Virus record (IMG/VR): IMGVR_UViG_3300034105_003891
Coordinates: 2,593-66,592 of that record
Length of the DNA: 64,000 nucleotides
Direction: 5' to 3' (one strand)
From: a virus
Below the pieces are notes generated by a model. That model ran no database searches and was not told the DNA's origin. It saw only the letters and a list, made by a program, of their open reading frames with translations. The translations under genes were made by a program, and so were the position numbers. Shown one piece after another: positions 40,807 through 55,970 of this stretch (positions are counted from its first letter, which is position 1; the number at the start of each line of letters is the position of its first letter).

Positions 40807-40820
40807 CTAATAACTAAAAA

Positions 40821-40847: not shown

Positions 40848-40867
40848 GTTAATTTAACCAATGCGAT

Positions 40868-41116: not shown

Positions 41117-41125
41117 GTCTTACCC

Positions 41126-41201: not shown

Positions 41202-41217
41202 CAATTATTAAAACATT

Positions 41218-41640
41218 ATGATATCAATCTATCTAGACGACACCAGAACGCCATTAGAACACCCAGCAGGGAAAGAATGGACAGTAGTAAGAGATTATGA
41301 TCAATTCGTAGATCTGGTCACTAAAACAGGTCTAAATAACGTTGAATTGATATCATTGGATCATGATCTTGGTCCCTTAGCCATCAAACATTTCTTCGAT
41401 AACACCAGAGCAAACTACACCATAAATTATGCTTTCATTAGGGAGAATACAGGTATGGATGTGGTTAAATGGCTGATTAATCTGGCAAGAGAATTGGATC
41501 TTGATTTACCCCAATGTTATGTTCATAGCGCAAATCCAATAGGCTGTGGCAATATGATGGGACACATCAACATGTACCACAAAGAAAGAAGAAAACACCA
41601 GACTTGCGTAAGGGTCAAATGGAAGCATTCTAGCAAATAA
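41218..41640 (+). CDS. Cyclic-phosphate-processing receiver-like domain protein
   Basis: YLDDTR, ISLDHDLG, TGMD, VHSANPIG. Confidence 0.8.
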   Translation: MISIYLDDTRTPLEHPAGKEWTVVRDYDQFVDLVTKTGLNNVELISLDHDLGPLAIKHFFDNTRANYTINYAFIRENTGMDVVKWLINLARELDLDLPQCYVHSANPIGCGNMMGHINMYHKERRKHQTCVRVKWKHSSK

Positions 41641-41667
41641 AAATGGTGCATCTGCGATATATAACGG

Positions 41668-43472
41668 ATGAAACATTTACAATTATTTGAAGAGTTTACA
41701 AGTTCTGATGAACAGTTAAAAGAGGATCTATTAGCTGACATGGTAGACAAAGCAAAAAGAGGTCTAGCAACTGGAGCATTAGTAGCTGCTCTTTTAACAT
41801 CACCTGATGTGTCACCTCAGGACGTAGCAGCAATCAAACAAGCAAATACCGAAATAGAGGCACCGCAGGAAGCTAATGGTGTTGGTGTTGGCATATCACC
41901 AGATCTTTCATTCTCAAAAGAGGTATCACTAACAAGAGCTATTACTGATCTTGCAAAGAATTTACCAGAAGGAACTACGTTATCGTATGAAATCATAGAT
42001 CAGAAAACGGTTATGGATGGTAGCAACTATAAGACAACAACGATAATCAAAATATCCACAGAAGGTACAAAGATAAACCCAGGTCAGCTAACAATAAAAA
42101 AGAAGGCAGTAGTAAGAGATGATGCTAGAATCAAAAGAGAAGCTCGTATGATTGATTATAGAGCGGAACTACTAGCAAGAGCTAAAAGATTTGGATTTGA
42201 TACAGTTGAGGAATACTACGCTTGGCAAGCGGAAAGAAATAAAGGGGAGGATGTAGGAATGGATAATTTGAACGATCCTTCGTTCTCACATACAAGCTGT
42301 GGCATCTCTAAAGCAGGTGCTAAGGATGCTAAAAGAGAATGGAAAAAGAAATAAATCACATGGGCATAAAAAAATTCAACGACTTCATAAACGAGTCGGA
42401 CCAAAGCGAGGAGATCAAAAAAGCATTAGAGTTACTTAGAAATTCTGGTTATCACATCGAGAAAATAGAACCAGAAAAGGTAACAAAAATAGGAACATAT
42501 CAAGCTCCAACCTTCGATACTCTTATGTTAATTCCAAAATTTTCTGAACTGCAGAAAATATTCGAGCTTGAGGAGGTAAGAAAATTAGATCCAAAAAAAT
42601 ACAGAGGAAATAAAAAAAATCTATATTTTTTTCCGGGGGTAATGGAGAATAAAGGAGGAAGCGTACCCCTTTTTAATTTATCAAGTCCAAAAGAAAACAT
42701 GATTCGGCTTTCGTTTGGTAACGGAAGGCCAGAAGTATCCGATATTCTTTCATTTACAGGTAGACCAATAATAAGCAATGCATTTTTTAATACTGCTAGA
42801 GAAAAAAATGCCGTAGTAGAAATAATAGAAAAATACTTATATTTAATTTACATTGGGCTGTGGAAGGAGGACATTAAAAAAATAACAGAGAAGGATCCGG
42901 GTAGCATGGACCTAGTGATAAAAGCATACGGAGAAAGCAAAGTACCTGCTGATGAATTATCGGAAAAGTCGCTAATGTATACATTAAATCTTATAGATTC
43001 ATTTGATATAAAATCTTTTGCAAGAGAAATTAAAAAAATTCCAGAAAATAAATCAATGAATATAATTACCGCTGTACTTGATACTCCAAGGATTTCGCAT
43101 ATACTTTCAAACTATCTTGAAAAAAACCATGATCTATTTAAAAAATAAAATGATATATACAATAAAAATAAAGAAATGAAACACATTAAATTATTTGGAG
43201 CGATACAGTCCAAAATTAACGAAAGCATGGGAATTGAACTCCCAGAGGGTTACGAATTCACACTATTTAATCCGAATGATAAAGCAGATTGCAAAAGACA
43301 TTTTGAGGAGGGAGATACAGAAAACTGGAGCGGAATGACCTTCGAGGAATGGATGGGAACATTGGATCAAATGGGGGAAATTGATTACCAGTCAGGAAAT
43401 AGCTACTATAGGGGAGTCATAGATTGGGAAGAAATGGGAATATCATACATATACGAGATACATCCAATATAA
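41668..43472 (+). other. Three hypothetical genes with MK-type N-termini (41668-42354, 42360-43148, 43176-43472)
   Basis: MKHLQLFEEF, MGIKKFNDFINES, MKHIKLF; GATATATA before the first and third. Confidence 0.7.
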
Positions 43473-43482
43473 CAAAAATCGG

Positions 43483-43558
43483 AAATAATTTTTTTATTCG
43501 AAACATTTTCCTAAATTTGCATAAAATATTAAAATCAATTAGATATATAAATCTATAA
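43483..43558 (+). promoter_or_regulatory. Dual promoter block (TAAATTTG 43512, GATATATA 43542), duplicated at 52311-52387
   Basis: About 76 bp differing by one substitution and one T indel. Confidence 0.9.
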
Positions 43559-43571
43559 TTTAAAAAACACA

Positions 43572-43700
43572 ATGAAAACAACTTTCAGAAATACTGTCAA
43601 TCCGTTTATGCCGCAAAGCATTGCACCCTTTAACCAGGTGGGCACTGCCAAATGGTATAATGGGAAAGATAAAGGATCTGGAGGTCACAATATAATTTAA
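43572..43700 (+). CDS. Attenuator leader peptide 1 (42 aa)
   Basis: MKTTFRNTVNPFMPQSIAPFNQVGTAKWYNGKDKGSGGHNII; not in ORF track; 3' codons complementary to the terminator arm. Confidence 0.8.
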   Translation: MKTTFRNTVNPFMPQSIAPFNQVGTAKWYNGKDKGSGGHNII

Positions 43701-43736
43701 TGTAAAGCACTAGTCAAATAAGCATTAAATATTTTT

Positions 43737-43770
43737 ACTCCAGATCTTAAAAGATCTGGAGTTTTTTTTT
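43737..43770 (+). terminator. Attenuator terminator 1
   Basis: ACTCCAGATCT-TAAA-AGATCTGGAGT plus T-run, 13 nt before tRNA-Pro. Confidence 0.9.
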
Positions 43771-43783
43771 GGACTAGAATTAA

Positions 43784-43859
43784 CGGGGAGTGGACTAATT
43801 GGCTAAGTCGCCTGATTTGGATTCAGGACATCATCAGAGTTCGAGTCTCTGTTCCCCGA
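43784..43859 (+). tRNA. tRNA-Pro(TGG)
   Basis: Cloverleaf; loop TT-TGG-AT. Confidence 0.85.
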
Positions 43860-43875
43860 CAAATAAATAAATGAA

Positions 43876-44103
43876 ATGGCAACAATAAAAGAAATCGTAA
43901 AAGACAACAAAGTTAGATTCTCGCATTTAAAGAATGACATAGCTTACTATAATGTATTCGTAGAGGGAGCGGATCACACATTCCCAGTTAGACTGAATGA
44001 TATAGGTGAAGCAACTTTGTTAGCTGAAGATAATGCCATCTTCTTTATGAGGTACATTAGAAAGGCTTTAGAAAACAACGAGTTTCATAAGGCAACTAGG
44101 TAA
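43876..44103 (+). CDS. Hypothetical protein
   Basis: 75-aa ORF between tRNAs. Confidence 0.7.
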   Translation: MATIKEIVKDNKVRFSHLKNDIAYYNVFVEGADHTFPVRLNDIGEATLLAEDNAIFFMRYIRKALENNEFHKATR

Positions 44104-44107
44104 ACAA

Positions 44108-44178
44108 ACGGGCTTGGTGCAATGGTAGCATGCCGGTCTCCAAAACCGTTGATGAAAGTTCGAATCTTTCAGTCCGTG
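44108..44178 (+). tRNA. tRNA-Trp(CCA)
   Basis: Cloverleaf; loop CT-CCA-AA. Confidence 0.88.
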
Positions 44179-44232
44179 CTGGCGCTTTTTCGTACTTTAG
44201 TTTGGATATATAAGCTAAACTAAAATATAGAA

Positions 44233-44901
44233 ATGGCAAGAAAAGAAAAACAGTTTAATTATCTTTATAAGATAACAAACACAAAAAATGATAAATATTA
44301 CATAGGAATGCATTCAACAGATAATCTGAATGATGGTTATATGGGTGGAGGTAAAAGAATTAGAAATTCGATTAGAAAGCATGGAAAAGAGATACACGAA
44401 AAGGAAATATTAGAATTTCATGAATCGAGGGAGGAATTGGCTATAAGAGAGAAAGAGATTGTGAATATTGAATTAATTAAATTCGACCCATTATGTATGA
44501 ATCTCTGTGTAGGAGGTGAAGGAGGTCCAAGAGGTGGAGGTGATAAATTTAAGAGAGCAAACGAGGTTAATAAAACGGAGGAAGGGAATAGGAAAATACG
44601 AAAATCTATATCAATATCAATGAAGAAAAAATATGAGGACCCTATATACAGAGAAAAAGCAAACCTAATATTAAAAAATACAGGTGGATTTGGTTCACGA
44701 AAACACACCGACGAATCAAAGGAAATGATAGGGAAGACAAATTCGGTTTCCCAATCTGGCGAAAGAAATTCACAATTTGGGAAACTTTGGATAAAGAACG
44801 ATTTACTTATGTTAAACAAAAGGATAAATCCAGATGAGCTTGACTATTATATCAATGAGGGATTTTCAAAGGGCATGAATATGAAATATTTTAGAAAGTA
44901 A
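44233..44901 (+). CDS. GIY-YIG homing endonuclease (Seg-like, NUMOD3-like motif)
   Basis: YLYKITN...YYIG; KHTDESK..I. Confidence 0.85.
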   Translation: MARKEKQFNYLYKITNTKNDKYYIGMHSTDNLNDGYMGGGKRIRNSIRKHGKEIHEKEILEFHESREELAIREKEIVNIELIKFDPLCMNLCVGGEGGPRGGGDKFKRANEVNKTEEGNRKIRKSISISMKKKYEDPIYREKANLILKNTGGFGSRKHTDESKEMIGKTNSVSQSGERNSQFGKLWIKNDLLMLNKRINPDELDYYINEGFSKGMNMKYFRK

Positions 44902-44910
44902 ACAATAAAT

Positions 44911-44983
44911 TGGGATATGATGCAATTGGTTAGCATACGACACTTTGACTGTCGCTATTAGTGTTCGAGTCACTATATCCCAA
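44911..44983 (+). tRNA. tRNA-Gln(TTG)
   Basis: Cloverleaf; loop CT-TTG-AC. Confidence 0.88.
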
Positions 44984-45037
44984 CAAAAGATTAAAAAATT
45001 ATAGAAAAAAATATTTTCTTAATCCGAAAGCATTTCA

Positions 45038-45082
45038 TATATTTGCGATGTTAATAAAAAGGTTCTTTGACATAACGGAAAC
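45038..45082 (+). promoter_or_regulatory. Internal promoter plus boxA-like site
   Basis: TATATTTG 45038-45045; GTTCTTTGACAT 45062-45073. Confidence 0.65.
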
Positions 45083-45155
45083 TAAATCATCACGATAAAG
45101 TGGAAACCGTTTAATAAACCAGGCAGGTTTATTAAACAAAAACAACTTTATTAAT

Positions 45156-45229
45156 GACCTCGTAGCTCAGTTGGCTAGAGCATCGCACTTTTAATGCGGG
45201 AGTCGTCGGTTCGAGCCCGACCGGGGTCA
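45156..45229 (+). tRNA. tRNA-Lys(TTT)
   Basis: Cloverleaf; loop CT-TTT-AA. Confidence 0.92.
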
Positions 45230-45234
45230 CAACG

Positions 45235-45312
45235 GGGATATTGGCACAGCGGCGACTGCACCTGACTGTAAATCAGGCATACCACACGGAGGTTCGAGTC
45301 CTCCATATCCCA
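45235..45312 (+). tRNA. tRNA-Tyr(GTA)
   Basis: Cloverleaf; loop CT-GTA-AA. Confidence 0.85.
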
Positions 45313-45317
45313 CAAAC

Positions 45318-45428
45318 GGAGTAAAAGGGCTGGGAAATGCCTGATAGGGTCTGCTTCAGATTCTAGATAGCAAGAGCAAGACTATTAGTGCTTATCCCAG
45401 AGAGCGTGGTTCAATTCCAGCTGCTCCA
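45318..45428 (+). ncRNA. tRNA-like RNA (acceptor stem, T arm, long irregular stem)
   Basis: GGAGTA/TGCTCC-A; TGG-TTCAATT-CCA; CTGGGA/TCCCAG. Confidence 0.55.
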
Positions 45429-45442
45429 CAAAATATTAATAT

Positions 45443-45515
45443 TCCAGAGTATTTCAATGGTCAGAAGACGGTACTGTTAATACCGAGGTTGCTGGTTCGA
45501 GCCCAGCCTCTGGAG
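45443..45515 (+). tRNA. tRNA-Asn(GTT)
   Basis: Cloverleaf; loop CT-GTT-AA. Confidence 0.9.
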
Positions 45516-45549
45516 CAAATAATAAAAAAATAAAAATAGTATTATTTCT

Positions 45550-46548
45550 ATGGTGAGAAATAAAAAAAGTTGCTTAAAATGCAATAAGGAGATAAGTTTA
45601 TCAAATTACACGAAACACGAAGAAACGTGCAAAGGTTCAAAAATTAAACTTAATTTGAATGACATAGTTAATGAAGCAGGTTTATGTATATGTCCGCATT
45701 GCCAAAAAGAATATAATATTAAAGGCATAGGGACGCATATATGGGCATCGCATGGGGATGGACTAAATACAAATCGAAAAAAAGGAAATGTTCCATGGAA
45801 TCACGGTCTAAATAAAAAAACTGATGAAAGAGTAGCCAGGCAAGCATTGATTTTATCAGAAGGATATAAAAACGGAAACATACACCCATCCTTCCTGGGT
45901 AAATCACACACGGAGCTAACAATCAATCAAATGAAAAAAAATCCAAAGTGTGGTGGAATAAGAAAGGGAAGCGGCAGGGGAAAAAGTGGATGGTATAGAG
46001 GCTATTATTGTGATAGCACATGGGAATTAGCATATGTTATATACAATATGGAAAATAAAATATATTTTGAAAGAAATACGAGAGGATTCCAATATATTTA
46101 CGAAAACGAAATACATTTATACTATCCAGATTTTATACAGCAAGACGGAAAATATGTTGAAATAAAGGGATACATGGATAGCAAAAACATAGAAAAAATA
46201 AAGGAATTTAGGAAAAATAATATACTTATTGTACTTGATGAAAAAGAAATTAGAAAATATTTAATTTACGCAAAAGAAAAATACGGTAAGGATCTATCCC
46301 TCCTCTATGATTCAGAGGAAATTAACAAAAAAGAAAAAACCAGGATGGAAATAATCAGAGATGAAAGAAAATCTATAATAAGGGAAAGCAATATAAATTT
46401 TAAAGAATATGGCTGGGGCAAAGAACTATCATTACTATTAAATATATCATCACAGAAATCAATAAAATGGGTAATTGATAATATGATGGATGAATTAAAC
46501 CCAAAATTATCACATATAAATAAAAAAGCGGGGGTAGCTCAGAGGTAG
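45550..46548 (+). CDS. Putative PD-(D/E)XK homing endonuclease with Zn fingers
   Basis: CxxC motifs, GKSHT, YYPDF...VEIKG; stop codon lies inside tRNA-Phe. Confidence 0.75.
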   Translation: MVRNKKSCLKCNKEISLSNYTKHEETCKGSKIKLNLNDIVNEAGLCICPHCQKEYNIKGIGTHIWASHGDGLNTNRKKGNVPWNHGLNKKTDERVARQALILSEGYKNGNIHPSFLGKSHTELTINQMKKNPKCGGIRKGSGRGKSGWYRGYYCDSTWELAYVIYNMENKIYFERNTRGFQYIYENEIHLYYPDFIQQDGKYVEIKGYMDSKNIEKIKEFRKNNILIVLDEKEIRKYLIYAKEKYGKDLSLLYDSEEINKKEKTRMEIIRDERKSIIRESNINFKEYGWGKELSLLLNISSQKSIKWVIDNMMDELNPKLSHINKKAGVAQR

Positions 46549-46602
46549 AGCACTGTGTTGAAGCTGCAGGTGTCGCGGGTTCGATTCCCGCTCTCCGCAC
46601 CA
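46528..46602 (+). tRNA. tRNA-Phe(GAA), encoded CCA
   Basis: Cloverleaf; loop TT-GAA-GC. Confidence 0.88.
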
Positions 46603-46661
46603 CAAATTAGATGAATCATGATAAGGAAACTTATTCGTAGAAATCATCTAAAATAATAAAT

Positions 46662-46733
46662 TCCTCTCTCGTATATCGGTTATTACGGATGACTGTTAAT
46701 CATCTTAGCTAGGTTCAATTCCTAGGGGAGGAG
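46662..46733 (+). tRNA. tRNA-Asn(GTT), second divergent copy
   Basis: Cloverleaf; loop CT-GTT-AA. Confidence 0.8.
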
Positions 46734-46831
46734 CAAATTAAAAGTGTGCCTGGTCAAGCCTCTTACTTCATTGTAACGTAACTAGTGGGTATAGAACTAA
46801 CATCAAACTTAGTTCGACGCTACCCAAAAAT

Positions 46832-46904
46832 GCGATAGTAGCTCAATTGGTAGAGCGCGACCTTGCCAAGGTCGAGGTTGCCGGATCGTGCCCGGTTTAT
46901 CGCT
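46832..46904 (+). tRNA. tRNA-Gly(GCC)
   Basis: Cloverleaf; atypical T loop ATCGTGC. Confidence 0.85.
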
Positions 46905-46950
46905 CACATGCCGGAAGATCCACGATTGAATCATCGTGCCGGCTCCAATA

Positions 46951-47024
46951 TAATAGGTCTTTGGTTCTAAGTCCGAGATAGTAATATCCGAAATCCGTCC
47001 AGAACGGTAAGCTGAGACCTATTA
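46951..47024 (+). ncRNA. Small structured RNA candidate
   Basis: Closed by TAATAGGTCT/AGACCTATTA; inner GTTCT/AGAAC and GATA-GTAA-TATC. Confidence 0.4.
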
Positions 47025-47030
47025 TTTAAT

Positions 47031-47108
47031 GCATGTATCGCCTAGTTGGTTATGGCATCACACTTCCAATGTGAAATAACGTCAGTTCGAATCTGACTAC
47101 ATGCTCCA
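47031..47108 (+). tRNA. tRNA-Gly(TCC), encoded CCA
   Basis: Cloverleaf; loop CT-TCC-AA. Confidence 0.9.
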
Positions 47109-47132
47109 GGTATTAAAAAGAATTATAAAAAT

Positions 47133-48047
47133 ATGTTGGGTTCGGAAAAAGTTTTAATTAGAGTCAATTCAAACCATCTAAAATATTATAGAGATCTTGG
47201 ATATTCAGCTAATAATCTAGATACGATATATGTATTACCACGTCATCTGCCACATGGAAGTCACGTAAAAATTAACATTTCATGTGACTACTGTAATATA
47301 ATAAACTATATTGAATTTAGATCGATTAGCGACAAAATAAATTTTATATATTCGTGTAGGTCCTGCTCATCCAAAGCAAGTTCATTAAAATATCCTTCTG
47401 TTTTTAGGAATTCAGAATTACAGAGGGAGCTGTCATTAAGAAATGATGCAAATTCCTTGATTAAGAGGAAAAAATCCAGATTAACCAAATACGGAGATGA
47501 AAATTACAATAATCAAAGTAAGAGAAAGTGGACATTAAAATCCAAATATGGCGATGAAAATTATAACAATACTGATAAACGAAGGGAAACATCTAAAACC
47601 ATATATGGTGATTCGAACTATAATAACCAGAGCAAGAAAATAGAAACCTGTAAAAAGAAATATGGGGTTGAGTATACTAGCCAACTAGAATCTGTGTGGA
47701 AAAAGATACAAAAATCATCGTACAAAACACACGATTATAAAAATACAGGGATACACTATCAGGGAAGCTATGAATTAGATTTCTTAGAATATTGCACTTC
47801 TAATGATATCAAGATAAGTAACGGTCCATCAATTAATTATATTTTTAAAGGAAAGAAAAGGAAATACTATCCTGATTTCATAATCGAAAATAATAATCTA
47901 GTAGTAGAAATAAAATCAACATACACGTTAAATTATGATATGGAATGCAATATAGCTAAACAAAATGCAGTTAAACTAGCCGGTTATAATTTCATTTTTG
48001 TAGTAGATAAAAATTACAAAGATCTGAAAGAAATAATTAGGGTGTAA
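47133..48047 (+). CDS. Putative PD-(D/E)XK homing endonuclease with KYGxxN repeats
   Basis: KYGDENYNN repeats; YYPDF...VEIKS. Confidence 0.75.
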   Translation: MLGSEKVLIRVNSNHLKYYRDLGYSANNLDTIYVLPRHLPHGSHVKINISCDYCNIINYIEFRSISDKINFIYSCRSCSSKASSLKYPSVFRNSELQRELSLRNDANSLIKRKKSRLTKYGDENYNNQSKRKWTLKSKYGDENYNNTDKRRETSKTIYGDSNYNNQSKKIETCKKKYGVEYTSQLESVWKKIQKSSYKTHDYKNTGIHYQGSYELDFLEYCTSNDIKISNGPSINYIFKGKKRKYYPDFIIENNNLVVEIKSTYTLNYDMECNIAKQNAVKLAGYNFIFVVDKNYKDLKEIIRV

Positions 48048-48119
48048 TAAAATAAACATATATTAGCAAAGTATGCTAATGATAATGCGAATAAATTATT
48101 TTAAAAATAAAACAAATAA

Positions 48120-48146
48120 ATGAAAACAATCATCGACTCCTCATAG
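48120..48146 (+). CDS. 8-aa upstream ORF MKTIIDSS
   Basis: TAG lies in a hairpin that pairs with the ATG of 48169. Confidence 0.45.
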   Translation: MKTIIDSS

Positions 48147-48168
48147 TTTTGGCAATTAGCTAAAAATT

Positions 48169-48402
48169 ATGACTCAGAAATTGAGAATTTGGAGAGTAGT
48201 TCCTACCAGTAAGACTGGTGTTCAGGCTCCCACTTTTTTCGTAGAGACTACGGAAGAAGGTCGTGAGAAGGCAGAGCAATCTGCAATTAAACAAGCAAGA
48301 CAAAGATCTGGCTTGGGTGTGTTTCAAAACTGGAATTTTAACCTTACCAAAATGGAGGTTAGAGTTGATCGATTTGGCAGATATGTCAAACATCATCAGT
48401 AG
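48169..48402 (+). CDS. Small basic hypothetical protein
   Basis: 77-aa ORF; start codon in predicted hairpin. Confidence 0.65.
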   Translation: MTQKLRIWRVVPTSKTGVQAPTFFVETTEEGREKAEQSAIKQARQRSGLGVFQNWNFNLTKMEVRVDRFGRYVKHHQ

Positions 48403-48442
48403 AAGTGATTGTTTTCATAGGTTCAATAAAAACCTATGATTT

Positions 48443-48516
48443 GGCGGGGTAGCTCAGATGGTTAGAGCGCGGGTTTCATACACCCGAGGCCGGTGGTTCG
48501 ATTCCACTTCCCGCTA
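48443..48516 (+). tRNA. tRNA-Met(CAT), probably elongator
   Basis: Cloverleaf; loop TT-CAT-AC. Confidence 0.85.
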
Positions 48517-48524
48517 CTAAGAAT

Positions 48525-48597
48525 GGGTCGGTAGCTCAATTGGCTGAGCACTTCACTTGCACTGAAGATGATGGGAGTTCGAGTCTCCTCCGATCCA
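48525..48597 (+). tRNA. tRNA-Ala(TGC)
   Basis: Cloverleaf; G3:U70 present. Confidence 0.92.
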
Positions 48598-48689
48598 CAA
48601 GATATTTTATTTTTAAAATGAAGTAAAATAAATTGAAAAATATTTTTTAATCACGAATGTTTGGATTACATTTGTAAAAAATTAAAACA

Positions 48690-49259
48690 ATGGCAAAGAA
48701 GGAAGAAGATTTAAAATTCTATGAGTACTCTCAGAATAACACTGGTGGGTCATTCGTAACTGATGATAAACTATGCCATAGATTATTCATAGAAGCGGAA
48801 AGCGAGTCTGAGGCAGATTCGATAGCGGAAGATCTAGGCTGTTATTGGAATGGCGTCAATGAAGGTCAAGATTGTCCATGCTGCGGTGATCGCTGGTATG
48901 GTGGTCATGAAGTTAATCTAATGAACATGACAAGAGAAAAGGATGGCACATATCCAGTAGAGGAATGGGTTGATAAAAGAAAATCAACGCCAGAGGAAGC
49001 ATTGGAATCATTAAGATCCAGATATTCAGAATTTGAATGGGTTAAAGCACCATCATTAGGTGACAAATATGGATCACCTATCATAGAAGGTGTGGTTAAA
49101 CTTAATAGCATAGAGGATTATGCACAGGTAATGGCTGATCAATTTGGTTGGACCTACCCAGATACTAGAATATTCTATCGCGACGGCAGAGTAAAAGAGA
49201 TATTTTCTTATAAGGTGGAAGCACCTAAGAAAAAAGGTAAAAAAATAGAAATAGAATAA
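48690..49259 (+). CDS. Conserved phage hypothetical protein
   Basis: QNNTGGSF...IEA...DCPCCGDRW; TACATTTG promoter 48667. Confidence 0.7.
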   Translation: MAKKEEDLKFYEYSQNNTGGSFVTDDKLCHRLFIEAESESEADSIAEDLGCYWNGVNEGQDCPCCGDRWYGGHEVNLMNMTREKDGTYPVEEWVDKRKSTPEEALESLRSRYSEFEWVKAPSLGDKYGSPIIEGVVKLNSIEDYAQVMADQFGWTYPDTRIFYRDGRVKEIFSYKVEAPKKKGKKIEIE

Positions 49260-49281
49260 ACCGGTAGCAATACCAGTAACC

Positions 49282-49356
49282 GGTTCCTTAGCTCAGTTGA
49301 TTCAGAGCGCTTCGTTTACACCGAAGAGGCCGTAGGTTTGAATCCTACAGGAATCA
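49282..49356 (+). tRNA. tRNA-Val(TAC)
   Basis: Cloverleaf; loop TT-TAC-AC. Confidence 0.88.
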
Positions 49357-49360
49357 CAAA

Positions 49361-49550
49361 AGATCCAATTAGTTCGAAAGAGCAAAAAAGGACGAATAAG
49401 ATGAACAGACGAAAGTCATCTCCAGAGGGTAGAAAATGAAAGGCTGACGCATCAGTCGACGGATTGATGAATGGTTTGATTCCGTTCCCAGAAGGTTTCA
49501 AGAGTATGGGATCAAGGTGTTAGTAGCGGTCTAAAATCTGAATTGGATCT
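49361..49550 (+). ncRNA. Structured RNA candidate, about 190 nt
   Basis: Closed by AGATCCAATT/AATTGGATCT; GNRA hairpins inside. Confidence 0.5.
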
Positions 49551-49560
49551 TGATAAAAAA

Positions 49561-49638
49561 TGTAGCTCACAAGGACACCTATTTATAGCTCAATTTCGAG
49601 CTCTTTTGAGCTTAAAGTTGGGGGCTTTGTGAGCTACA
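49561..49638 (+). ncRNA. Structured RNA candidate, 78 nt
   Basis: 14-bp closing stem TGTAGCTCACAAGG/CTTTGTGAGCTACA. Confidence 0.4.
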
Positions 49639-49641
49639 AAT

Positions 49642-49734
49642 CGATTGGATGATATAGTGGCAGTATTAGGTCGGGGGTCTTACGTGAGTGAGTTGCCTCT
49701 GGTCCAGCACAGGTTCGATTCCTGTTTCAATCGC
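49642..49734 (+). ncRNA. tRNA-like RNA with elongated anticodon arm capped by GTGA
   Basis: CGATTGGA/TTCAATCG acceptor; ACAGG-TTCGATT-CCTGT T arm. Confidence 0.6.
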
Positions 49735-49754
49735 TAATTTTTAAATATTTCAAA

Positions 49755-50144
49755 ATGGACAAGGAAAGATTGGAATCATTAGCTAATAGATTATTAGAGA
49801 TTCCTGCAAAGATTGTTGAAGCACAATTAGAGTTATTGACATTAACTGAAACTTCACAATCACAATCAGACAAGATCACACAGATCGAATCTGTAATTAG
49901 AGCTGAGATAGGTGCTACCGTTGATGGCTCTGGTAAAAAAGCTTACAGTAATGCGGAAGCAAGGGATGCTGCTTTTGTTGAAAAAACTGCAGATAATTAC
50001 GAATTGATTGTTGCTAAAACCGATCTTGCTAAAACACAAAGATCAGTACAAGAAAAAAGGATTAAGATAGAGGCTCTCGGAAGCGATCAGAGAAATATTA
50101 GATCAGTTCTATATTTTATAGGTGGCGGGGAAGGATCAATCTAA
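49755..50144 (+). CDS. Coiled-coil hypothetical protein
   Basis: 129 aa, helical; YSNAEARDA. Confidence 0.7.
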   Translation: MDKERLESLANRLLEIPAKIVEAQLELLTLTETSQSQSDKITQIESVIRAEIGATVDGSGKKAYSNAEARDAAFVEKTADNYELIVAKTDLAKTQRSVQEKRIKIEALGSDQRNIRSVLYFIGGGEGSI

Positions 50145-50226
50145 AAATTAAAAAATTTAAAATTAATTTTTTTATCCCGAAAGGTAATCATATATTTGCA
50201 TCATAATAATTAATAACAAATAAAAG

Positions 50227-50400
50227 ATGGCTACAGCAGCAAAAAGATCCAGACAATCAAGAGCATTATCAATGTTAGAAAAACAACTAGCAAGCGGGGT
50301 TAAAACAGAAAAAGGTACAAGGGACGGTAAAGTCGATTTATCTGATTCTGATGTAAAACGTCTTAACAAGGAGATCGGTATTTTACAAGGAAGACTGTAA
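50227..50400 (+). CDS. Small basic hypothetical protein (57 aa, not in track)
   Basis: MATAAKRSRQSRAL... after TATATTTG 50191. Confidence 0.6.
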   Translation: MATAAKRSRQSRALSMLEKQLASGVKTEKGTRDGKVDLSDSDVKRLNKEIGILQGRL

Positions 50401-50407
50401 TAAAGTT

Positions 50408-50479
50408 GGTCCCATAGTTCAACGGATAGAACACCTGACTACGGATCAGGAGATGGGGGTTCGAATCCCTTTGGGATCT
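50408..50479 (+). tRNA. tRNA-Arg(ACG)
   Basis: Cloverleaf; loop CT-ACG-GA. Confidence 0.9.
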
Positions 50480-50486
50480 CAAAATC

Positions 50487-50560
50487 CGGTAGGTAGCTCA
50501 GTTGGTTAGAGCGTCGCACTGATACTGCGAAGGTCGGAGGTCCAAGTCCTCCTCTACCGA
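50487..50560 (+). tRNA. tRNA-Ile(GAT)
   Basis: Cloverleaf; loop CT-GAT-AC. Confidence 0.88.
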
Positions 50561-50628
50561 CAGCAATGAAACATTAAAGGAAACATCAATATAAATATCA
50601 GAAATTATAAATAAATTTAAGGGAAATT

Positions 50629-51552
50629 ATGAAAAGAAATTCGTTAGCATCAACAGGTTTATCTATGTCTCAAGCTCAGTCAATCTCAAATCTTTGTAAC
50701 CAAAGATCTAAAGATATCACTGCAACATTGAGCGACATTAACAATGCATCAAAAACAATAAACATAGACAAGATAGACCACGATTTAGAAGTGGGCAAAC
50801 CTTTGCCGGTAAATGTTATAGAATTGCTTAAAGATAAGGCAAGATTGCATGCAACTCAAGCTTTTCTTATGGAAAATACAAAAGCCAAAGATGCTCTAAT
50901 TAATAAAATCAAAGGCGAGCATTTTGACTATGAATCTGGAAATCCAGGTCCTCTAAGGGAATCAACTATTTATCCTGAAGTTCAATCACAAGTAACTGAA
51001 GATTGGGGATGGGATCAACTTTCCACTCTAGAGTATAATGAGTTTATTGAGGCTGAGGCTTATGCTTCGCACATTGGTCAATTCATACATAGAGGTGGAA
51101 CTCTTGATCGATTGAGAAGTGAATTACCTAAGATTCAAACCTTGGAGTTCATGGAGATCGAGAAGGATAAGAAAACACCAGTTAAGATCAAAGCGCATCA
51201 CAAGTCAGAGGATCTTTTAAAAACTCACGAAGAGTTAGCAGCTCTTCACAGAGGTTACGAACAGAGAGTTAACTACTTCAAATCGAAGGTTAAGAACTCA
51301 GTAACCAAAGAGAATGCAAGGATTTCTAAAGTTAATGCGGATGCTCAGGCAGAAGCTAACGAAAAGAATGCTCTTTCATTGAACGAGTATTCTAAAAAGA
51401 AAGAGACTTGGTTGGCTGAATATAAAAGAGCAAGTCTTGATTTTGAGACAGAGCGTCAAAATCGAATTGGCGAGGCAGTAAATCTTAAAATTCAAGTGGA
51501 TGCTAGATTCCAACCAGTTGTTGACGAGTTTTTAAAACAACTAGAAAAATAA
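50629..51552 (+). CDS. Helical/coiled-coil hypothetical protein
   Basis: 307 aa; HIGQFIH segment; long helical C-terminus. Confidence 0.8.
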   Translation: MKRNSLASTGLSMSQAQSISNLCNQRSKDITATLSDINNASKTINIDKIDHDLEVGKPLPVNVIELLKDKARLHATQAFLMENTKAKDALINKIKGEHFDYESGNPGPLRESTIYPEVQSQVTEDWGWDQLSTLEYNEFIEAEAYASHIGQFIHRGGTLDRLRSELPKIQTLEFMEIEKDKKTPVKIKAHHKSEDLLKTHEELAALHRGYEQRVNYFKSKVKNSVTKENARISKVNADAQAEANEKNALSLNEYSKKKETWLAEYKRASLDFETERQNRIGEAVNLKIQVDARFQPVVDEFLKQLEK

Positions 51553-51558
51553 AAAATA

Positions 51559-51940
51559 AATTGAGGTGCTGAAGGGGTAAGCAAAAGCCGATTCCCCTGA
51601 TGCTTTGATTCGGAGAGATGAAGTCCTAAAAAACAATGGCTCCAAGCCATTATCTTATTAGATAAATGACTATTAATCATATACAGCAATTAGAGATGTA
51701 TCCTCCGGGATCTCTCAAAACTCCGCTTCTTCTATAAAATTAAACAGAACTGAGATAGAACTCAAACGTTAGACAAGTTACTGAAAGCAATAGAGAAAGA
51801 TAAATCTTTACCACTAGGCAGATAATTGGCTAACACTCGAGACTTAGTTTTTGTCCTTGCCTTTGCGATAGAGGAAGGTCTTTGACATTGATCTTGCATT
51901 TGACTTAGTCTATATGCTTTATCTTTTCGATAACTCAATT
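51559..51940 (+). ncRNA. Structured RNA candidate, about 380 nt, with 6-nt periodic TTG/TAG runs
   Basis: AATTGAG/CTCAATT ends; 51726-51735 pairs with 51868-51877; terminator 51961-51990. Confidence 0.55.
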
Positions 51941-52030
51941 TTATAATATTCACACATAACAAAAAAGTCATCACATACGATGACTTTTTTGTTGTTATAT
52001 AGATGGATATATAAAATAAAAAATATCAAT

Positions 52031-52303
52031 ATGAAACATTTAGAATCATACGAATTAAAGAATCAGAAAATCGACGAGGGATTCGGGACAGATGAAACTG
52101 CAGTAATTAAAGAGTTAAAAGCTGATCTTGAGGGACTCGTAAAACAAAATGTTGCGGTAACAGATTTTAGCACTACAAAATTTGAGCAGAGAGAAAAAAG
52201 ATTAGATGAGATATTACACGATCTAAGTTTTATCGTTGCTAGATATGCTGATATCACTGATAGTGGCGACTTTGTTGCTAAACCTTTAAATGAAATTCAA
52301 TAA
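52031..52303 (+). CDS. Hypothetical protein, MKH-type N-terminus
   Basis: Start re-assigned to MKHLESYE after GATATATA. Confidence 0.7.
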   Translation: MKHLESYELKNQKIDEGFGTDETAVIKELKADLEGLVKQNVAVTDFSTTKFEQREKRLDEILHDLSFIVARYADITDSGDFVAKPLNEIQ

Positions 52304-52310
52304 AAATCAA

Positions 52311-52387
52311 AAATAATTTTTTTTATTCGAAACATTTTCTTAAATTTGCATAAAATATTAAAATCAATTAGATATATAAATCTATAA
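52311..52387 (+). promoter_or_regulatory. Second copy of dual promoter block (TAAATTTG 52341, GATATATA 52371)
   Basis: Near-identical to 43483-43558. Confidence 0.9.
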
Positions 52388-52398
52388 AAATAAAAACG

Positions 52399-52491
52399 AT
52401 GTCACAAATACAGTACATATTAGATACATTACATTTAGATCACACAAGTTCGACTTGTGAATCGTCTATTGTAATGAGGAGAGAGTATTGA
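52399..52491 (+). CDS. Attenuator leader peptide 2 (30 aa)
   Basis: MSQIQYILDTLHLDHTSSTCESSIVMRREY; not in ORF track; last codons complementary to the terminator arm. Confidence 0.8.
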   Translation: MSQIQYILDTLHLDHTSSTCESSIVMRREY

Positions 52492-52514
52492 TATTAAGTC
52501 ACATAATAATATCT

Positions 52515-52545
52515 AAAAGGTCTCCTCGCAAAGGAGACCTTTTTT
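52515..52545 (+). terminator. Attenuator terminator 2
   Basis: AAAAGGTCTCCT-CGCAA-AGGAGACCTTTTTT. Confidence 0.9.
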
Positions 52546-52548
52546 ATT

Positions 52549-52568
52549 GTTCATTGAAATAGCGGAAA
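52549..52568 (+). promoter_or_regulatory. boxA-like site
   Basis: GTTCATTGAAATAGCGGAAA, matches 45062 GTTCTTTGACATAACGGAAA at 17/20. Confidence 0.6.
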
Positions 52569-52576
52569 AACAAATT

Positions 52577-52660
52577 GGAGGTGTGGACAGCTGGTTGTCA
52601 AACGGTCTTGAAAATCGTCGCTCGTTTTTCGGGTTGCAGGTTCGAATCCTGTCACCTCCG
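52577..52660 (+). tRNA. tRNA-Ser(TGA)
   Basis: Cloverleaf, long variable arm. Confidence 0.88.
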
Positions 52661-52666
52661 CTAATC

Positions 52667-52752
52667 GGAGATTAATACTAAACGGTGATAGTCCATGCCT
52701 GGAAAGCATCGGGTGCGGGTAACTGCATAGGGTTCGATCCCCTTGATCTCCT
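52667..52752 (+). tRNA. tRNA-Ser(GGA)
   Basis: Cloverleaf, long variable arm; atypical T discriminator. Confidence 0.75.
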
Positions 52753-52790
52753 CTGGCGCTTTTTCGCACAAAGTAAGAAAAAGTAAAACT

Positions 52791-52864
52791 GCTTCCAACG
52801 CATAAGTGGTGGTGCACGGGATTTGTAACCCCGAATAGACTCAGTTCGATCCTGAGTGGAAGCT
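52791..52864 (+). tRNA. tRNA-Thr(TGT)
   Basis: Cloverleaf; loop TT-TGT-AA. Confidence 0.82.
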
Positions 52865-52874
52865 CTATAATCAC

Positions 52875-52957
52875 GGTGCCTTGCCTGAGTGGCTGAAAGG
52901 GGCGGTCTGCAAAACCGCTAGAGAAATCTCGCGTCAGTTCGAATCTGACAGGCACCT
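52875..52957 (+). tRNA. tRNA-Cys(GCA) with long variable arm
   Basis: Loop CT-GCA-AA; U73; extra arm GAG-AAAT-CTC. Confidence 0.82.
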
Positions 52958-52976
52958 CTAATAAAAATTAGTAATC

Positions 52977-53414
52977 ATGGAACAAGACAAAAAAGAAAAA
53001 ATTGAAAAGATCAAAAGGTTCCTTGAAGAAAAAAGGGAAATAGATCGAAGAAATTATCACGAGCTTCGAAGAAAAAAATGGGATAATTTAAAGCCATTTA
53101 AAACACCGCAGGATGTACCAGAAATACCAAAAGTTAGTGAGCAGGAATATAAGGAATATTATATACCAAAACTCATCGAAGCTGGTGCAATTCCAAAAGC
53201 TGAACTCGAAGATGGAGCTTTCTATCTTGGAGATCACAGAAGATGCAAGATTGGTAAATGGAACGCCGCTGAGAATGTCTTTGGGTATTGGAGAAACAAA
53301 TTTGGTAATGGTTTCATTGACAAATGCAACCACTTCGAAGACGATGAGGGATTCGCTTTATTTACTCCAATAAAAAAAGTGACAGAAGAGGAATTTAATA
53401 AAACAAAAGAATAG
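52977..53414 (+). CDS. Hypothetical protein
   Basis: 145-aa ORF inside tRNA block 2. Confidence 0.75.
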   Translation: MEQDKKEKIEKIKRFLEEKREIDRRNYHELRRKKWDNLKPFKTPQDVPEIPKVSEQEYKEYYIPKLIEAGAIPKAELEDGAFYLGDHRRCKIGKWNAAENVFGYWRNKFGNGFIDKCNHFEDDEGFALFTPIKKVTEEEFNKTKE

Positions 53415-53469
53415 CATCTCCCTAGGGAGAAGGCACTGGCTGGCGATCTGGCCTTATAGATCGCAACAT

Positions 53470-53541
53470 GGTGATTGTGGTGTAACGGTAACACGCCTGG
53501 TTGTGGTTCAGGTAATGGCAGTTCGATTCTGCTCTTTCACA
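53470..53541 (+). tRNA. tRNA-His(GTG), degenerate acceptor stem
   Basis: Loop TT-GTG-GT; G-1 present, two T:T mismatches, A73. Confidence 0.65.
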
Positions 53542-53547
53542 CAAAAT

Positions 53548-53632
53548 GCTACTGTGGTGTAATGGAAGCCACGCCAGACTTAAAATCTGGTGTTCAGTAA
53601 TGGACGTGCCGGTTCGATCCCGGCCAGTAGTA
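53548..53632 (+). tRNA. tRNA-Leu(TAA)
   Basis: Cloverleaf, long variable arm. Confidence 0.9.
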
Positions 53633-53637
53633 CAAAA

Positions 53638-53723
53638 AGAGAAGTAAGCATAACGGTACTGCCGCGGATTGCTAATCCGTTCATCATTAATTTGGTGTGT
53701 GGGTTCGAATCCCATCTTCTCTG
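53638..53723 (+). tRNA. tRNA-Ser(GCT)
   Basis: Cloverleaf, long variable arm, G73. Confidence 0.85.
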
Positions 53724-53807
53724 CAAAGATAATTAAAAAAATATCAAAAATTATTTTTTTATCGCGAAAGAATATCATACTTTTGCAATATAATAATAAA
53801 CAAAAAA

Positions 53808-53879
53808 GGTCCTGTAGCTCAGCGGTAGAGCAAGTTCCTCATAAGAACGAGGCCGGGATATCGTAATTCCCCAGGACCA
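53808..53879 (+). tRNA. tRNA with CAT anticodon, probably Ile2 (lysidine)
   Basis: GGTCCTG acceptor, loop CT-CAT-AA; identity inferred; atypical T loop. Confidence 0.7.
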
Positions 53880-53881
53880 CT

Positions 53882-54032
53882 AGAAATAATGGGATTTCCT
53901 ACTTATTGATGTCGACAATCATGGGTAGATCAAGAAATTCATCACCCCCTGAAAAGGAATCTGCCGAGGCCTCGTAAAACTACGATTAAGCAGTTAAGAA
54001 TGGAGCGAGACGGGTACTCCATCATTATTTCT
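53882..54032 (+). ncRNA. Structured RNA candidate, about 150 nt
   Basis: Closed by AGAAATAATG/CATTATTTCT; ATGGAG/CTCCAT hairpin near 3' end. Confidence 0.45.
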
Positions 54033-54037
54033 TAACC

Positions 54038-54110
54038 GCTGCCATCGTCTAACGGTAAAGGACCTATGGTTTTCATCCATAAAATGGGAGTTCGATTCTC
54101 CCTGGCAGTA
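54038..54110 (+). tRNA. tRNA-Glu(TTC)
   Basis: Cloverleaf; loop TT-TTC-AT. Confidence 0.88.
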
Positions 54111-54119
54111 CAAATGGAT

Positions 54120-54319
54120 ATGAGATGTCCATCAGTCTTTGATCTAAGACTCATTTAACAATAGATTGGCTATTGGACCGGACAGCCTTAACGACGGTCT
54201 CGTGGGAAATAAAAGGCAGGTAACAGAGCCTCCCAGTAGTTTGACTAATTTCACCGGGTAAGACCAGCAGGTTTATTGAAAAGTAAGAAAACCGATCTAT
54301 CCACACCGAAATATCTCAT
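54120..54319 (+). ncRNA. Structured RNA candidate, about 200 nt
   Basis: ATGAGATGT/ATATCTCAT and ATAGATTGG/CCGATCTAT nested stems. Confidence 0.45.
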
Positions 54320-54331
54320 CGGTGGCAATTT

Positions 54332-54403
54332 GGTCCATTCGTTCAACGGCTAGGATGCTACCCTGTCACGGTAGAGAAGAGATTTCGATTATCTCATGGA
54401 CCG
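54332..54403 (+). tRNA. tRNA-Asp(GTC)
   Basis: Cloverleaf; loop CT-GTC-AC; G73. Confidence 0.88.
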
Positions 54404-54452
54404 CAAAGCTTTGAATTAATTACCCAAAGCATGACAGGTTCGAAACTGTCGA

Positions 54453-54543
54453 TTGATTATGGTGTAAAGGTGCACAGTAGAACGGAGTAGCCGTGGAGGC
54501 GAAAGGGGAAACAGGATTGGAGTTCAAATCTCCTTTAATCAGC
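54453..54543 (+). ncRNA. tRNA-like RNA without a canonical anticodon arm
   Basis: TTGATTA/TAATCAG acceptor, D-like arm, GGAG-TTCAAAT-CTCC T arm. Confidence 0.5.
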
Positions 54544-54712: not shown

Positions 54713-55042
54713 ATGAAAAATATAGAAACGTTTGAGAACTTTATCAACGAGGAATCGGAAAATGAGATATCAGAAAAAATGAATGCAGGATTTAGAGCTT
54801 ATCTAGATAAACAAAAAGCTAAAAGAGAAGCTAAATCAGGGGATAAACCAAAAAGCAAAGCAAAGCCTGATTTTCTAGATCTTGATAAGGACGGAGACAA
54901 GGACGAGACAATGAAAAAAGCAGCAGCCGATAAAAAAGAAAATGATGGCGAGCCAGCAAATACTCCAAAAAAGGGACTAACTGATAAACAAAAAACCCTA
55001 CCAAAAGCCTTACAAGCAGCTATTCTTAAAAAACAGAAATAA
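54713..55042 (+). CDS. Small charged virion-type protein
   Basis: MKNIETFENFINEE; KPDFLDLDKDGDKDETMKKAA motif. Confidence 0.7.
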   Translation: MKNIETFENFINEESENEISEKMNAGFRAYLDKQKAKREAKSGDKPKSKAKPDFLDLDKDGDKDETMKKAAADKKENDGEPANTPKKGLTDKQKTLPKALQAAILKKQK

Positions 55043-55163
55043 ATCCCACAATAGTTAAAAAAGTCCGATATCCACAATATCGGACTTTTTTGTTTCCCGT
55101 GCAAATAGCCGGATTTTTTTCGAATATATAGCTTGTCGTATTCGATTATAATCAAAGACTTAA

Positions 55164-55970
55164 ATGGGAAATATATTAAACTTCAAAGGGTTTCTTAACG
55201 AAGCAGAAACACAAGATGATGCACATCTACTATTTAACGGTAACACTCTAGATTTTATAGAGGGTGGTAGAGTTGTTAAGTCGTGGCGTGCGTGCTCGGG
55301 AAGAACCTACTATCACTGGTATGTTAAACCAGAATCATGGAAAAAGAGATATAACATGTCACCAGTTGAATGGTCCAAGATTAAATCGGAAGGTCCGATT
55401 CCACAAGGCACATATAAACTTGGTCCGACAGAAGAGAGAGATCTTAATGCAAGGTGGAGAAACGACGAGAACTTTGCCAAACTAACTCTTGCTAAACAAA
55501 CAGTCCTTCTGCTTCCAGATAATGATGTCACATTAAACACGGATGATTTCAAGAAGATAACAGACCCATCCAGAATAGCATGGGGTAATTTTAGATTTGC
55601 ATTAACCCCACAAAAAGGAGCTAACTCGTTCGGGAGAGGTGGTTTCTTTTTGCATGGGGGTAGCTTACCGGGTTCGATTGGCTGTATTGATCTTGTTACA
55701 GGGATAAAAGATTTTGGACAGTTCTATAAAGATTGGCTACAAAAAACTGGTAACACCACGATAGATCTTATTGTTGATTATAAAACTTTTGACAAAAACG
55801 AAACCATCGATGTTGACACCCAACCTTATAAGATGAACTATGATCCTCTGGCACCAGATGCAGGGTATAAAAAATGGTACGATGAAAGCGATGCACAGAT
55901 AAAGGATATATTATCAACTAATAAAGTAAGAATGGATTATGATAAAGTCCTTTCCCGAAGAAGAAATTAA
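55164..55970 (+). CDS. Tlde1/DUF2778-like L,D-transpeptidase-fold protein
   Basis: GPIPQGTY, RGGFFLHGG...GSIGCI (His...Cys). Confidence 0.75.
   Translation: MGNILNFKGFLNEAETQDDAHLLFNGNTLDFIEGGRVVKSWRACSGRTYYHWYVKPESWKKRYNMSPVEWSKIKSEGPIPQGTYKLGPTEERDLNARWRNDENFAKLTLAKQTVLLLPDNDVTLNTDDFKKITDPSRIAWGNFRFALTPQKGANSFGRGGFFLHGGSLPGSIGCIDLVTGIKDFGQFYKDWLQKTGNTTIDLIVDYKTFDKNETIDVDTQPYKMNYDPLAPDAGYKKWYDESDAQIKDILSTNKVRMDYDKVLSRRRN

Follow-up and report, generated by a model that had tools for sequence, protein, structure and literature searches.

What decides whether a phage transcribes its tRNA genes is the question raised by a 64,000-nucleotide (nt) stretch of viral DNA (hereafter the window; positions 2,593 to 66,592 of IMG/VR record IMGVR_UViG_3300034105_003891), in which a short open reading frame (ORF) and an intrinsic terminator stand between a promoter-like cassette and a block of ten tRNA genes. 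An initial annotation of the window had read this unit as a transcription attenuator, the second of two, with leader codons that mirror the tRNAs of the block behind it (block 2). That core claim is supported by the coding signature of the ORF, by a gap in promoter boxes behind it, by a twin unit in the same window, by three units in Cellulophaga phage phi4:1 and by the geometry of ribosome stalling. We put the probability that a ribosome-mediated (leader-peptide) transcription attenuator gates this phage tRNA operon at about 0.75. The unit comprises the following features.

52302-52387, + strand: promoter and 5' leader cassette, 95% identical to 43474-43558 ahead of attenuator 1
52341-52348, + strand: putative Bacteroidota-type -7 box TAAATTTG, a motif match
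52369-52384, + strand: imperfect palindrome TAGATATATAAATCTA, identical in both units and in every relative retrieved, in the relatives by selection because they were retrieved with the palindrome sequence
52399-52491, + strand: leader ORF of 30 codons plus TGA, peptide MSQIQYILDTLHLDHTSSTCESSIVMRREY, with a coding signature in six sequences
52420-52467, + strand: regulatory run, codons 8-23 of the leader, all 16 of them codons for tRNAs of the block behind
52443-52459, + strand: 7-bp hairpin CACAAGU-UCG-ACUUGUG inside the run (CACAAGTTCGACTTGTG), -5.7 kcal/mol
52469-52482, + strand: predicted antiterminator 5' strand UUGU..GAGGAGA, within leader codons 24-28, from a partial-transcript fold
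52490-52513, + strand: inner hairpin GAUAUUA / UAAUAUC, lying within the antiterminator and 1-2 pairs longer in relatives
52515-52543, + strand: intrinsic terminator with a 12-bp stem and a 5-nt loop, then TTTTTTATTG; -15.7 kcal/mol, with a U-tract
52577-54404, + strand: regulated block of ten tRNA genes and ORF 52977-53414
55060-55088, + strand: terminator past ORF 54713-55042, which probably ends the operon

Leader codons and their conservation

The genes behind the terminator are, in order, Ser-TGA, Ser-GGA, Thr-TGT, Cys-GCA, ORF 52977-53414 (145 amino acids), His-GTG, Leu-TAA, Ser-GCT, Met-CAT, Glu-TTC and Asp-GTC. Codons 8-23 of the leader (TTA GAT ACA TTA CAT TTA GAT CAC ACA AGT TCG ACT TGT GAA TCG TCT) form an uninterrupted run of block-2 amino acids, present base for base as the initial annotation had reported it, and the three Ser isoacceptors said to be covered are all represented (AGT, TCG and TCT). 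Nine of the ten block-2 anticodons have at least one cognate codon in the run, CAT alone being missing; under strict wobble 15 of the 16 codons are readable by block-2 tRNAs, and all three Leu codons are TTA, ahead of Leu-TAA. With a background frequency of 0.40 for this set of amino acids in the long ORFs of the window, the probability of a run of at least 16 within 29 codons is 4.3e-6, and a run of at least 16 occurs just once across the six frames of the 64-kb window, where it is also the longest. When matches were counted by codon, the run was 17 codons long under relaxed wobble (P 1.3e-6) and 11 under strict wobble (P 6e-5). The regulatory codons by which leader-peptide attenuators are recognised are present in this leader. 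Its own tRNA set outscored all 24 other sets in a swap test (first of 25), and the completeness of the codon checklist, given the in-set codons, was not significant for the block-2 unit (P 0.18).

Two further codons, the ATA triplets at positions 4 and 7, had been matched to an Ile2 tRNA. The codons are there; the Ile2 (lysidine) identity of the tRNA-CAT gene at 53808-53880 is putative and unproven, pointed to by the acceptor pairs C4-G69 and C5-G68 in its ARAGORN drawing, which we take to be TilS determinants. ATA accounts for 49% of Ile codons in the window.

The unit was found on five related contigs (L132, L133, which is the contig of L008, L134, which is that of L009, L136 and L137), and the window was aligned with them to give six sequences. 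The leader peptide of all five is identical to that of the window, in a setting where the protein of the 145-codon ORF (ORF145) is 81-83% identical where measured and tRNA spacing differs. None of the 62 first and second codon positions of the leader ORF was variable in this alignment, and of the 31 third positions four varied, all synonymously (hypergeometric P 0.011 for all four changes falling at third positions). The changes were CAG/CAA, ACA/ACG, TCG/TCA and GTA/GTG, each within the codons of one tRNA. Variation was found at 7 of 25 positions in the spacer from stop codon to terminator, at 3 of 6 in the terminator loop and at 1 of 22 in the terminator arms, the last being an A to G change that retains a G-U pair. 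The hairpin at 52443-52459 exists as previously described and persists in the relatives through an A-U to G-U change; that it might serve as an RNA polymerase pause hairpin is a guess.

Four sequencing runs were also examined, as low-depth DNA contigs whose uncovered parts are not evidence. The first such metagenome contig had no changes in the leader ORF and seven outside it, and the second had two synonymous changes and one non-synonymous change. In RNA-labelled runs, 5-10% of sampled words were present. Upstream of the leader start lies an A-rich region with A at -3, resembling the long ORFs of the window. This start context and the substitution pattern lend indirect support to a putative translation of the leader ORF. 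Pfam gave no match for the two leader peptides of the window, nor for three neighbouring ORFs (52031, 52977 and 50629).

Promoter, terminator and competing folds

Transcription would start a few bases 3' of the box at 52341-52348. Between 52316 and 52396 the six-sequence alignment is invariant except for two columns. At the level of motifs, the + strand has no further TAnnTTTG from 52349 to 53777, the next lying at 53778 (a possible internal promoter box, TACTTTTG). Because of this gap, the first seven block-2 tRNAs would depend on read-through of the terminator; the arrangement is that of an attenuator, in that the leader has a putative promoter on its 5' side and no promoter box intervenes before the seven tRNA genes that follow the terminator. 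The palindrome TAGATATATAAATCTA is a candidate site for a regulator that could be common to both tRNA operons of the window. The cassettes of these operons (43474-43558 and 52302-52387) carry TAAATTTG, unlike most promoters at 6.8-24.8 kb, which have TATATTTG. Sigma-70 promoters were considered and set aside in favour of the Bacteroidota -7 box, a scan having given 29 matches against 28.6 expected, with no enrichment.

An intrinsic terminator lies between leader and regulated genes, its stem kept and its loop variable among the relatives, and its 5' arm (52521-52531) doubles as the 3' strand of the antiterminator. GAGGAGA is found at 52476-52482 and TCTCCTC at 52521-52527, with TTGT at 52469-52472 and GCAA at 52528-52531 extending the pairing. 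When the transcript was folded up to the terminator loop, UUGU/GCAA and GAGGAGA/UCUCCUC paired around the inner hairpin at -16.2 kcal/mol. The inner stem proposed earlier (GATATTA 52490-52496, TAATATC 52507-52513) is where it had been placed and forms in this fold. In the fold model the terminator forms once its 3' arm is present or a ribosome sits at the stop codon.

A ribosome was then placed on each codon in turn, in a model that masks 13 or 16 nt on the 3' side of the A site. On the block-2 leader, a ribosome stalled anywhere as far as codon 22-24 keeps the antiterminator accessible, and one stalled beyond that occludes it; the last codon of the matched run is 23. The six units modelled, here and in the loci described below, all show this agreement, with 0-3 codons between the last permissive stall codon and the end of the run.

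The proposed switch would work as follows. After transcription from the promoter with the -7 box at 52341-52348, ribosomes would load at the A-rich leader and translate the 30-codon ORF behind the moving polymerase. If codons 8-23 were decoded quickly, the ribosome would reach codons 24-30 and the stop codon and cover 52469-52482, the terminator at 52515-52543 would fold, and transcription would stop ahead of the tRNA genes. If one or several codons of the run were read slowly, the ribosome would lag, the free strand would capture the terminator 5' arm at 52521-52531, and polymerase would continue into the Ser, Ser, Thr, Cys, His, Leu, Ser, Met/Ile2, Glu and Asp tRNAs and two small ORFs. The new tRNAs would accelerate leader decoding and turn the operon off again, making it a demand-driven homeostat for tRNA supply. 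Because each tRNA has just 1-4 codons in the run, the element probably sums delays along the entire run instead of answering to any one codon.

The twin unit and units in other phages

About 9 kb upstream in the window stands a unit of the same design, attenuator 1, with these parts.

43572-43762, + strand: twin unit, attenuator 1, behind the same 85-nt promoter and leader cassette
43572-43700, + strand: leader 1 ORF, MKTTFRNTVNPFMPQSIAPFNQVGTAKWYNGKDKGSGGHNII, whose peptide differs from that of leader 2
43673-43683, + strand: predicted antiterminator strand of attenuator 1
43737-43762, + strand: terminator of attenuator 1, which differs from the block-2 terminator

On its 3' side lie tRNA-Pro at 43784 and 14 further tRNAs (Pro, Trp, Gln and 12 others). 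Nine proteins homologous to leader 1 were found (76-98% identity), in which substitutions showed no clear bias to in-set residues. In a diverged homologue of leader 1 (L120) the terminator is another one and the antiterminator strand is correspondingly changed, with the N-terminal peptide kept, which amounts to covariation.

Another terminator in the window, at 40632 ahead of tRNA-Arg, served as a negative control and showed no codon match (P 0.55); it is an ordinary gene end, because its promoter sits behind the terminator. The ORF that it closes, at 40433-40659, is small and lipoprotein-like (MKRTLFLLAVLFSLSLSSCKK.., with a repeated VDTT), has its own terminator and lies just 5' of the tRNA-Arg-TCT promoter. 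It is no attenuator, since its terminator comes before the promoter.

Phage phi4:1 (NC_021788) carries three units, in each of which a repeated promoter is followed by a short ORF, a copy of the antiterminator, a terminator and then the tRNA block. The three terminators lie at about 11842, 12816 and 14572 of L007.

Unit A: leader MKIQRLHLQELEQPIISGGTGV, run QRLHLQELEQP; block Pro, Glu, Gln, His, Leu-TAG, Leu-TAA, Arg-ACG
Unit B: leader ..TKTGITVIDKTKGARA..; block Ala, Lys, Ile, Gly, Met, Asp, Thr, Val, Arg-TCT, Met
Unit C: leader MKTNYCTYNNSNWSFSY.., run YNNSNWSFSY; block Tyr, Ser-GCT, Asn, Trp, Phe

The own-set runs of A, B and C are 11, 16 and 10 long (P 8.8e-6, 1.5e-4 and 6.2e-6), and each is the longest own-set run in six frames of the 24-kb locus. 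With the window included, four of five leaders in two lineages hold the longest own-set run of their whole locus. Isoacceptors match as well: the Arg codon of leader A is CGT and its block has Arg-ACG (CGN making up only 5% of phi4:1 Arg codons), that of leader B is AGA and its block has Arg-TCT, and together with the three TTA codons of leader 2 these give a joint P of ~0.004. The promoter of the phi4:1 units is a different one, and they have hardly any 5' leader. Five units other than block 2 were put through the antiterminator shuffle test and gave P values of 0.001-0.032. All three units of phage phi17:2 are near copies of those in phi4:1 and so provide no independent evidence, and a search of IMG/VR with the phi4:1 helicase as bait returned phi4:1 itself only. 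As to annotation, GenBank starts phi4:1 gp075 (L007 12645-12764) at a TTG within the repeated promoter, leaders A and C (L007 11721-11789 and 14427-14525) have no annotation, and gp076 (14773-14874) sits between tRNA-Tyr and tRNA-Ser.

For an unbiased sample, 119 viral contigs were chosen by a tRNA-Glu pattern and yielded 41 terminator-to-tRNA units; 22 with hairpins weaker than -11 kcal/mol were dropped, and the 19 scored were pooled with six from the window and phi4:1 to give 25. The own set ranked first in six of the 25 and among the top three in 12, and 13 of the units scored had no convincing match. The sampled loci are often truncated, and four of them (L034, L043, L097 and L117) are one family, so the sample supports recurrence and gives no frequency.

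That family has a minimal unit (L043, - strand, 760-883; also L034, L097 and L117), made up of a 20-amino-acid ORF, MLKNSTTNITCWPPNNRGTS, a terminator and tRNAs Trp, Pro and Cys. In the peptide, CWPP comes immediately ahead of the position at which a ribosome stall would occlude the antiterminator. Because this unit lies on unrelated contigs and its L043 copy has a TTGACA..TATA-type (sigma-70-like) promoter, the design may not be restricted to Bacteroidota phages.

Alternative explanations, host and known systems

Several observations weigh against the leader-peptide interpretation. Some concern the antiterminator of block 2 itself. Among 1000 dinucleotide shuffles, 128 folded as stably or better (minimum free energy P 0.128) and 502 paired at least as many bases of the terminator 5' arm, and the outer TTGT/GCAA pairs are not conserved, the loop in relatives being TAAAA or GAAAA. 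Of the pairing in the initial annotation, the strings are where they had been placed, the helix is predicted and its core is kept in L008 and L009; its stability is no better than that of shuffles, and the extension is not conserved. The transcription start is a putative one, placed by its promoter motif, and the box at 53778 may supply the last three tRNAs independently. In the leader, ACT is readable only if U34 reads U, and the 1-4 codons per tRNA are unlike the tandem runs of classical leaders. The non-synonymous change in the second low-depth contig turns codon 2 from TCA to CTA, outside the run. Leader 1 is weakly enriched (33 of 41 codons in-set, binomial P 0.009) and its longest run is not significant; in phi4:1 leader C, Ser-GCT fails to read two of the three Ser codons that the run contains.

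Among the alternatives, the one that survives best keeps the attenuator hardware and changes the signal, so that amino-acid starvation or host translation capacity, acting through charging, would tune the operon and its two protein genes to host physiology. Classical leader-peptide attenuators sense the level of charged tRNA and respond to it, the operon also has ORFs 52977-53414 and 54713-55042, and charging and abundance are inseparable from sequence alone. The leader codons, however, match the tRNA genes by block and by isoacceptor in two phage lineages, which is hard to explain unless the operon product is sensed, and extra tRNA gives no relief from amino-acid starvation. We regard this explanation as improbable.

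Somewhat less probable again is that a phage or host protein, or timing, overcomes the terminator through the conserved 5' leader and the palindrome at 52369-52384, as one factor-dependent switch for both tRNA operons in which the small ORF is no sensor. Such a switch would fit the 85-nt cassette that is 95% identical in both units, the near-invariance of 52316-52396 (two variable columns in six sequences) and the absence of statistical support for the block-2 antiterminator helix. It leaves unexplained the 16-codon match and the confinement of ORF variation to third positions, and phi4:1 has the same design with a different promoter and almost no 5' leader. Protein-factor control and leader-peptide control could coexist.

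Already disfavoured, and very improbable, is an independent small gene (a 30-amino-acid micropeptide or a ~190-nt small RNA), equipped with a promoter and a terminator of its own, the tRNAs being made by read-through or from unrecognised promoters: a promoter, a short ORF and a strong terminator also fit a small gene, sub-threshold Rfam matches are mostly terminators of small RNAs and the peptide has no Pfam family match, but the coincidental codon match would have to recur, given that four of five leaders in two lineages hold the locus-longest own-set run, that own sets rank first in 6/25 and in the top three in 12/25 units, and that the ordinary terminator at 40632 shows no match (P 0.55).

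The host is probably a member of the Bacteroidota, because the window has an excess of TANNTTTGC (40 occurrences against 14 expected), which we take to be the Bacteroidota -7 promoter box, because Shine-Dalgarno sequences are few and because the isolates with a DNA match are Cellulophaga phages. A Shine-Dalgarno-like 4-mer precedes only 8 of 59 long ORFs, and the 20 nt upstream of long ORFs are 49% A against 35% window-wide. The only isolates with a DNA match are phi4:1 and phi17:2, via tRNA-Glu, and blastn of 51900-54500 against a phage collection gave only tRNA-Glu matches (nine records), with no known close relative in that collection. Many lake-water metagenomes hold near-identical DNA. 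Window G+C is 36.7%, and the 27 tRNA genes, all on the + strand, span 40734-54404. The source viral record is 66.6 kb long and estimated to be 31% complete; since the leader-2 unit also sits on viral contigs of 430 and 434 kb (L136 and L137), the phage group may be far larger than the ~210 kb implied by that estimate.

Some neighbouring genes and tRNAs have features of their own. The putative tRNA-Cys(GCA) of block 2 (52875-52958, 84 nt) is drawn in the manner of a class II tRNA (Ser, Leu, Tyr), its variable arm being long and its D stem 3 bp; class-II-like tRNA-Cys(GCA) genes are also found at L008 9900-9983 and L009 9899-9982, and a phi4:1 'tRNA-Pseudo' (L007 15509-15582) is similar by eye, with GCA at the anticodon position. 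In a close relative ARAGORN calls a tRNA whose TTA anticodon would decode the stop codon TAA (L009 3869-3943, equal to L010 13486-13560), in the stretch that holds tRNA-Ile-GAT in the window, and in another relative it calls an odd 91-nt tRNA with a two-base anticodon (L008 1980-2070). ORF 44233-44901 (222 amino acids), between tRNA-Trp and tRNA-Gln, matches SegE_GIY-YIG (PF19835, E 2e-5, 25.2 bits, cut-off 25), so that a homing-endonuclease-like product is encoded inside the tRNA array, as in T4. ORF 55164-55970 (268 amino acids), past the tRNA region, falls narrowly short of two cut-offs, scoring 29.7 against 30.1 bits for the Tlde1 domain and 22.9 against 23.4 bits for the YkuD L,D-transpeptidase domain.

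The closest known systems are the enterobacterial leader-peptide attenuators thrL (Thr and Ile), ilvL/ivbL (Leu/Val/Ile), trpL, hisL, leuL and pheL. Shared with them are a promoter, a short ORF in which regulatory codons abound, a terminator hairpin and a predicted antiterminator hairpin that would exclude each other, an ORF 3' end that overlaps the antiterminator strand and, as predicted here, termination upon fast decoding. Those leaders control biosynthetic enzymes and repeat 1-3 amino acids, whereas the phage element controls tRNA genes and its leader samples seven amino acids and 9-10 tRNAs, 1-4 times each; unlike them it is phage-borne, has a Bacteroidota-type promoter and lacks a Shine-Dalgarno sequence, and its tRNA product would act back directly on the sensor. 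PheM, the leader of the pheST operon, provides attenuation of an aminoacyl-tRNA synthetase and likewise acts on a translation-apparatus gene that serves the same codons, but it controls the synthetase for one amino acid, whereas the phage element controls the tRNAs themselves, for many amino acids together. T-box riboswitches also couple translation-supply genes to the state of the cognate tRNA through a choice of terminator or antiterminator; unlike the phage leader, they bind uncharged tRNA directly, have no ORF and respond to one tRNA each.

No T-box match was found in Rfam scans of the window at gathering scores or of 52250-52600 in E-value mode. The former scan returned tRNAs only (24 matches) and no cis-regulatory family. 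The latter gave sub-threshold matches, mostly to terminator-like small RNAs; the best leader match, Phe_leader, covers mainly the terminator and reached 30.3 bits against a gathering score of 55, which places the unit outside every curated Rfam leader family. Leader-peptide attenuation has been a textbook mechanism of amino-acid operons for 50 years. Full-text literature searches returned no description of leader-peptide control of tRNA genes, which, as far as these searches show, would be a new target for this known mechanism.

An in-silico survey of viral tRNA clusters includes Cellulophaga phages, and the accessible part of its text has no mention of attenuation, leader, terminator or promoter (PMC6409571). 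According to the accessible parts of three other papers, phage tRNAs replace host tRNAs lost to anticodon nucleases (PMC10264068, PMC11464382, PMC11555353). Their subject is what phage tRNAs do, and they give a reason for a phage to sense tRNA shortage; attenuation, leader peptide, terminator and promoter go unmentioned in the portion available of PMC10264068.

A broader generalisation can be offered tentatively, and we lean against it at present: large Bacteroidota phages, and some phages with sigma-70-type promoters, might run their tRNA arrays as demand-driven homeostats, each block gated by a 'checklist' leader ORF that acts as an OR-gate over 5-13 tRNA species, such that any depletion of host tRNA (by codon mismatch, phage-induced host shut-off or anticodon-nuclease defences) would trigger the replacement set within seconds. 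If the homeostat reading is true, these would be the first tRNA genes whose expression is governed by how the codons they serve are translated, and they would constitute an inducible counter-defence.

Small ORFs of this kind are missed or mis-annotated, as phi4:1 gp075 and leaders A and C illustrate. Cellulophaga baltica and phage phi4:1 are a culturable pair with three such units, and a leader of this type would be a natural reporter of the tRNAs that are limiting during infection. If the leader-peptide interpretation holds, phages would gauge how fast each codon is decoded and tune the supply of their own tRNAs accordingly, which bears on why phages carry tRNAs at all, whether for codon compensation or to replace tRNAs destroyed by host defences.

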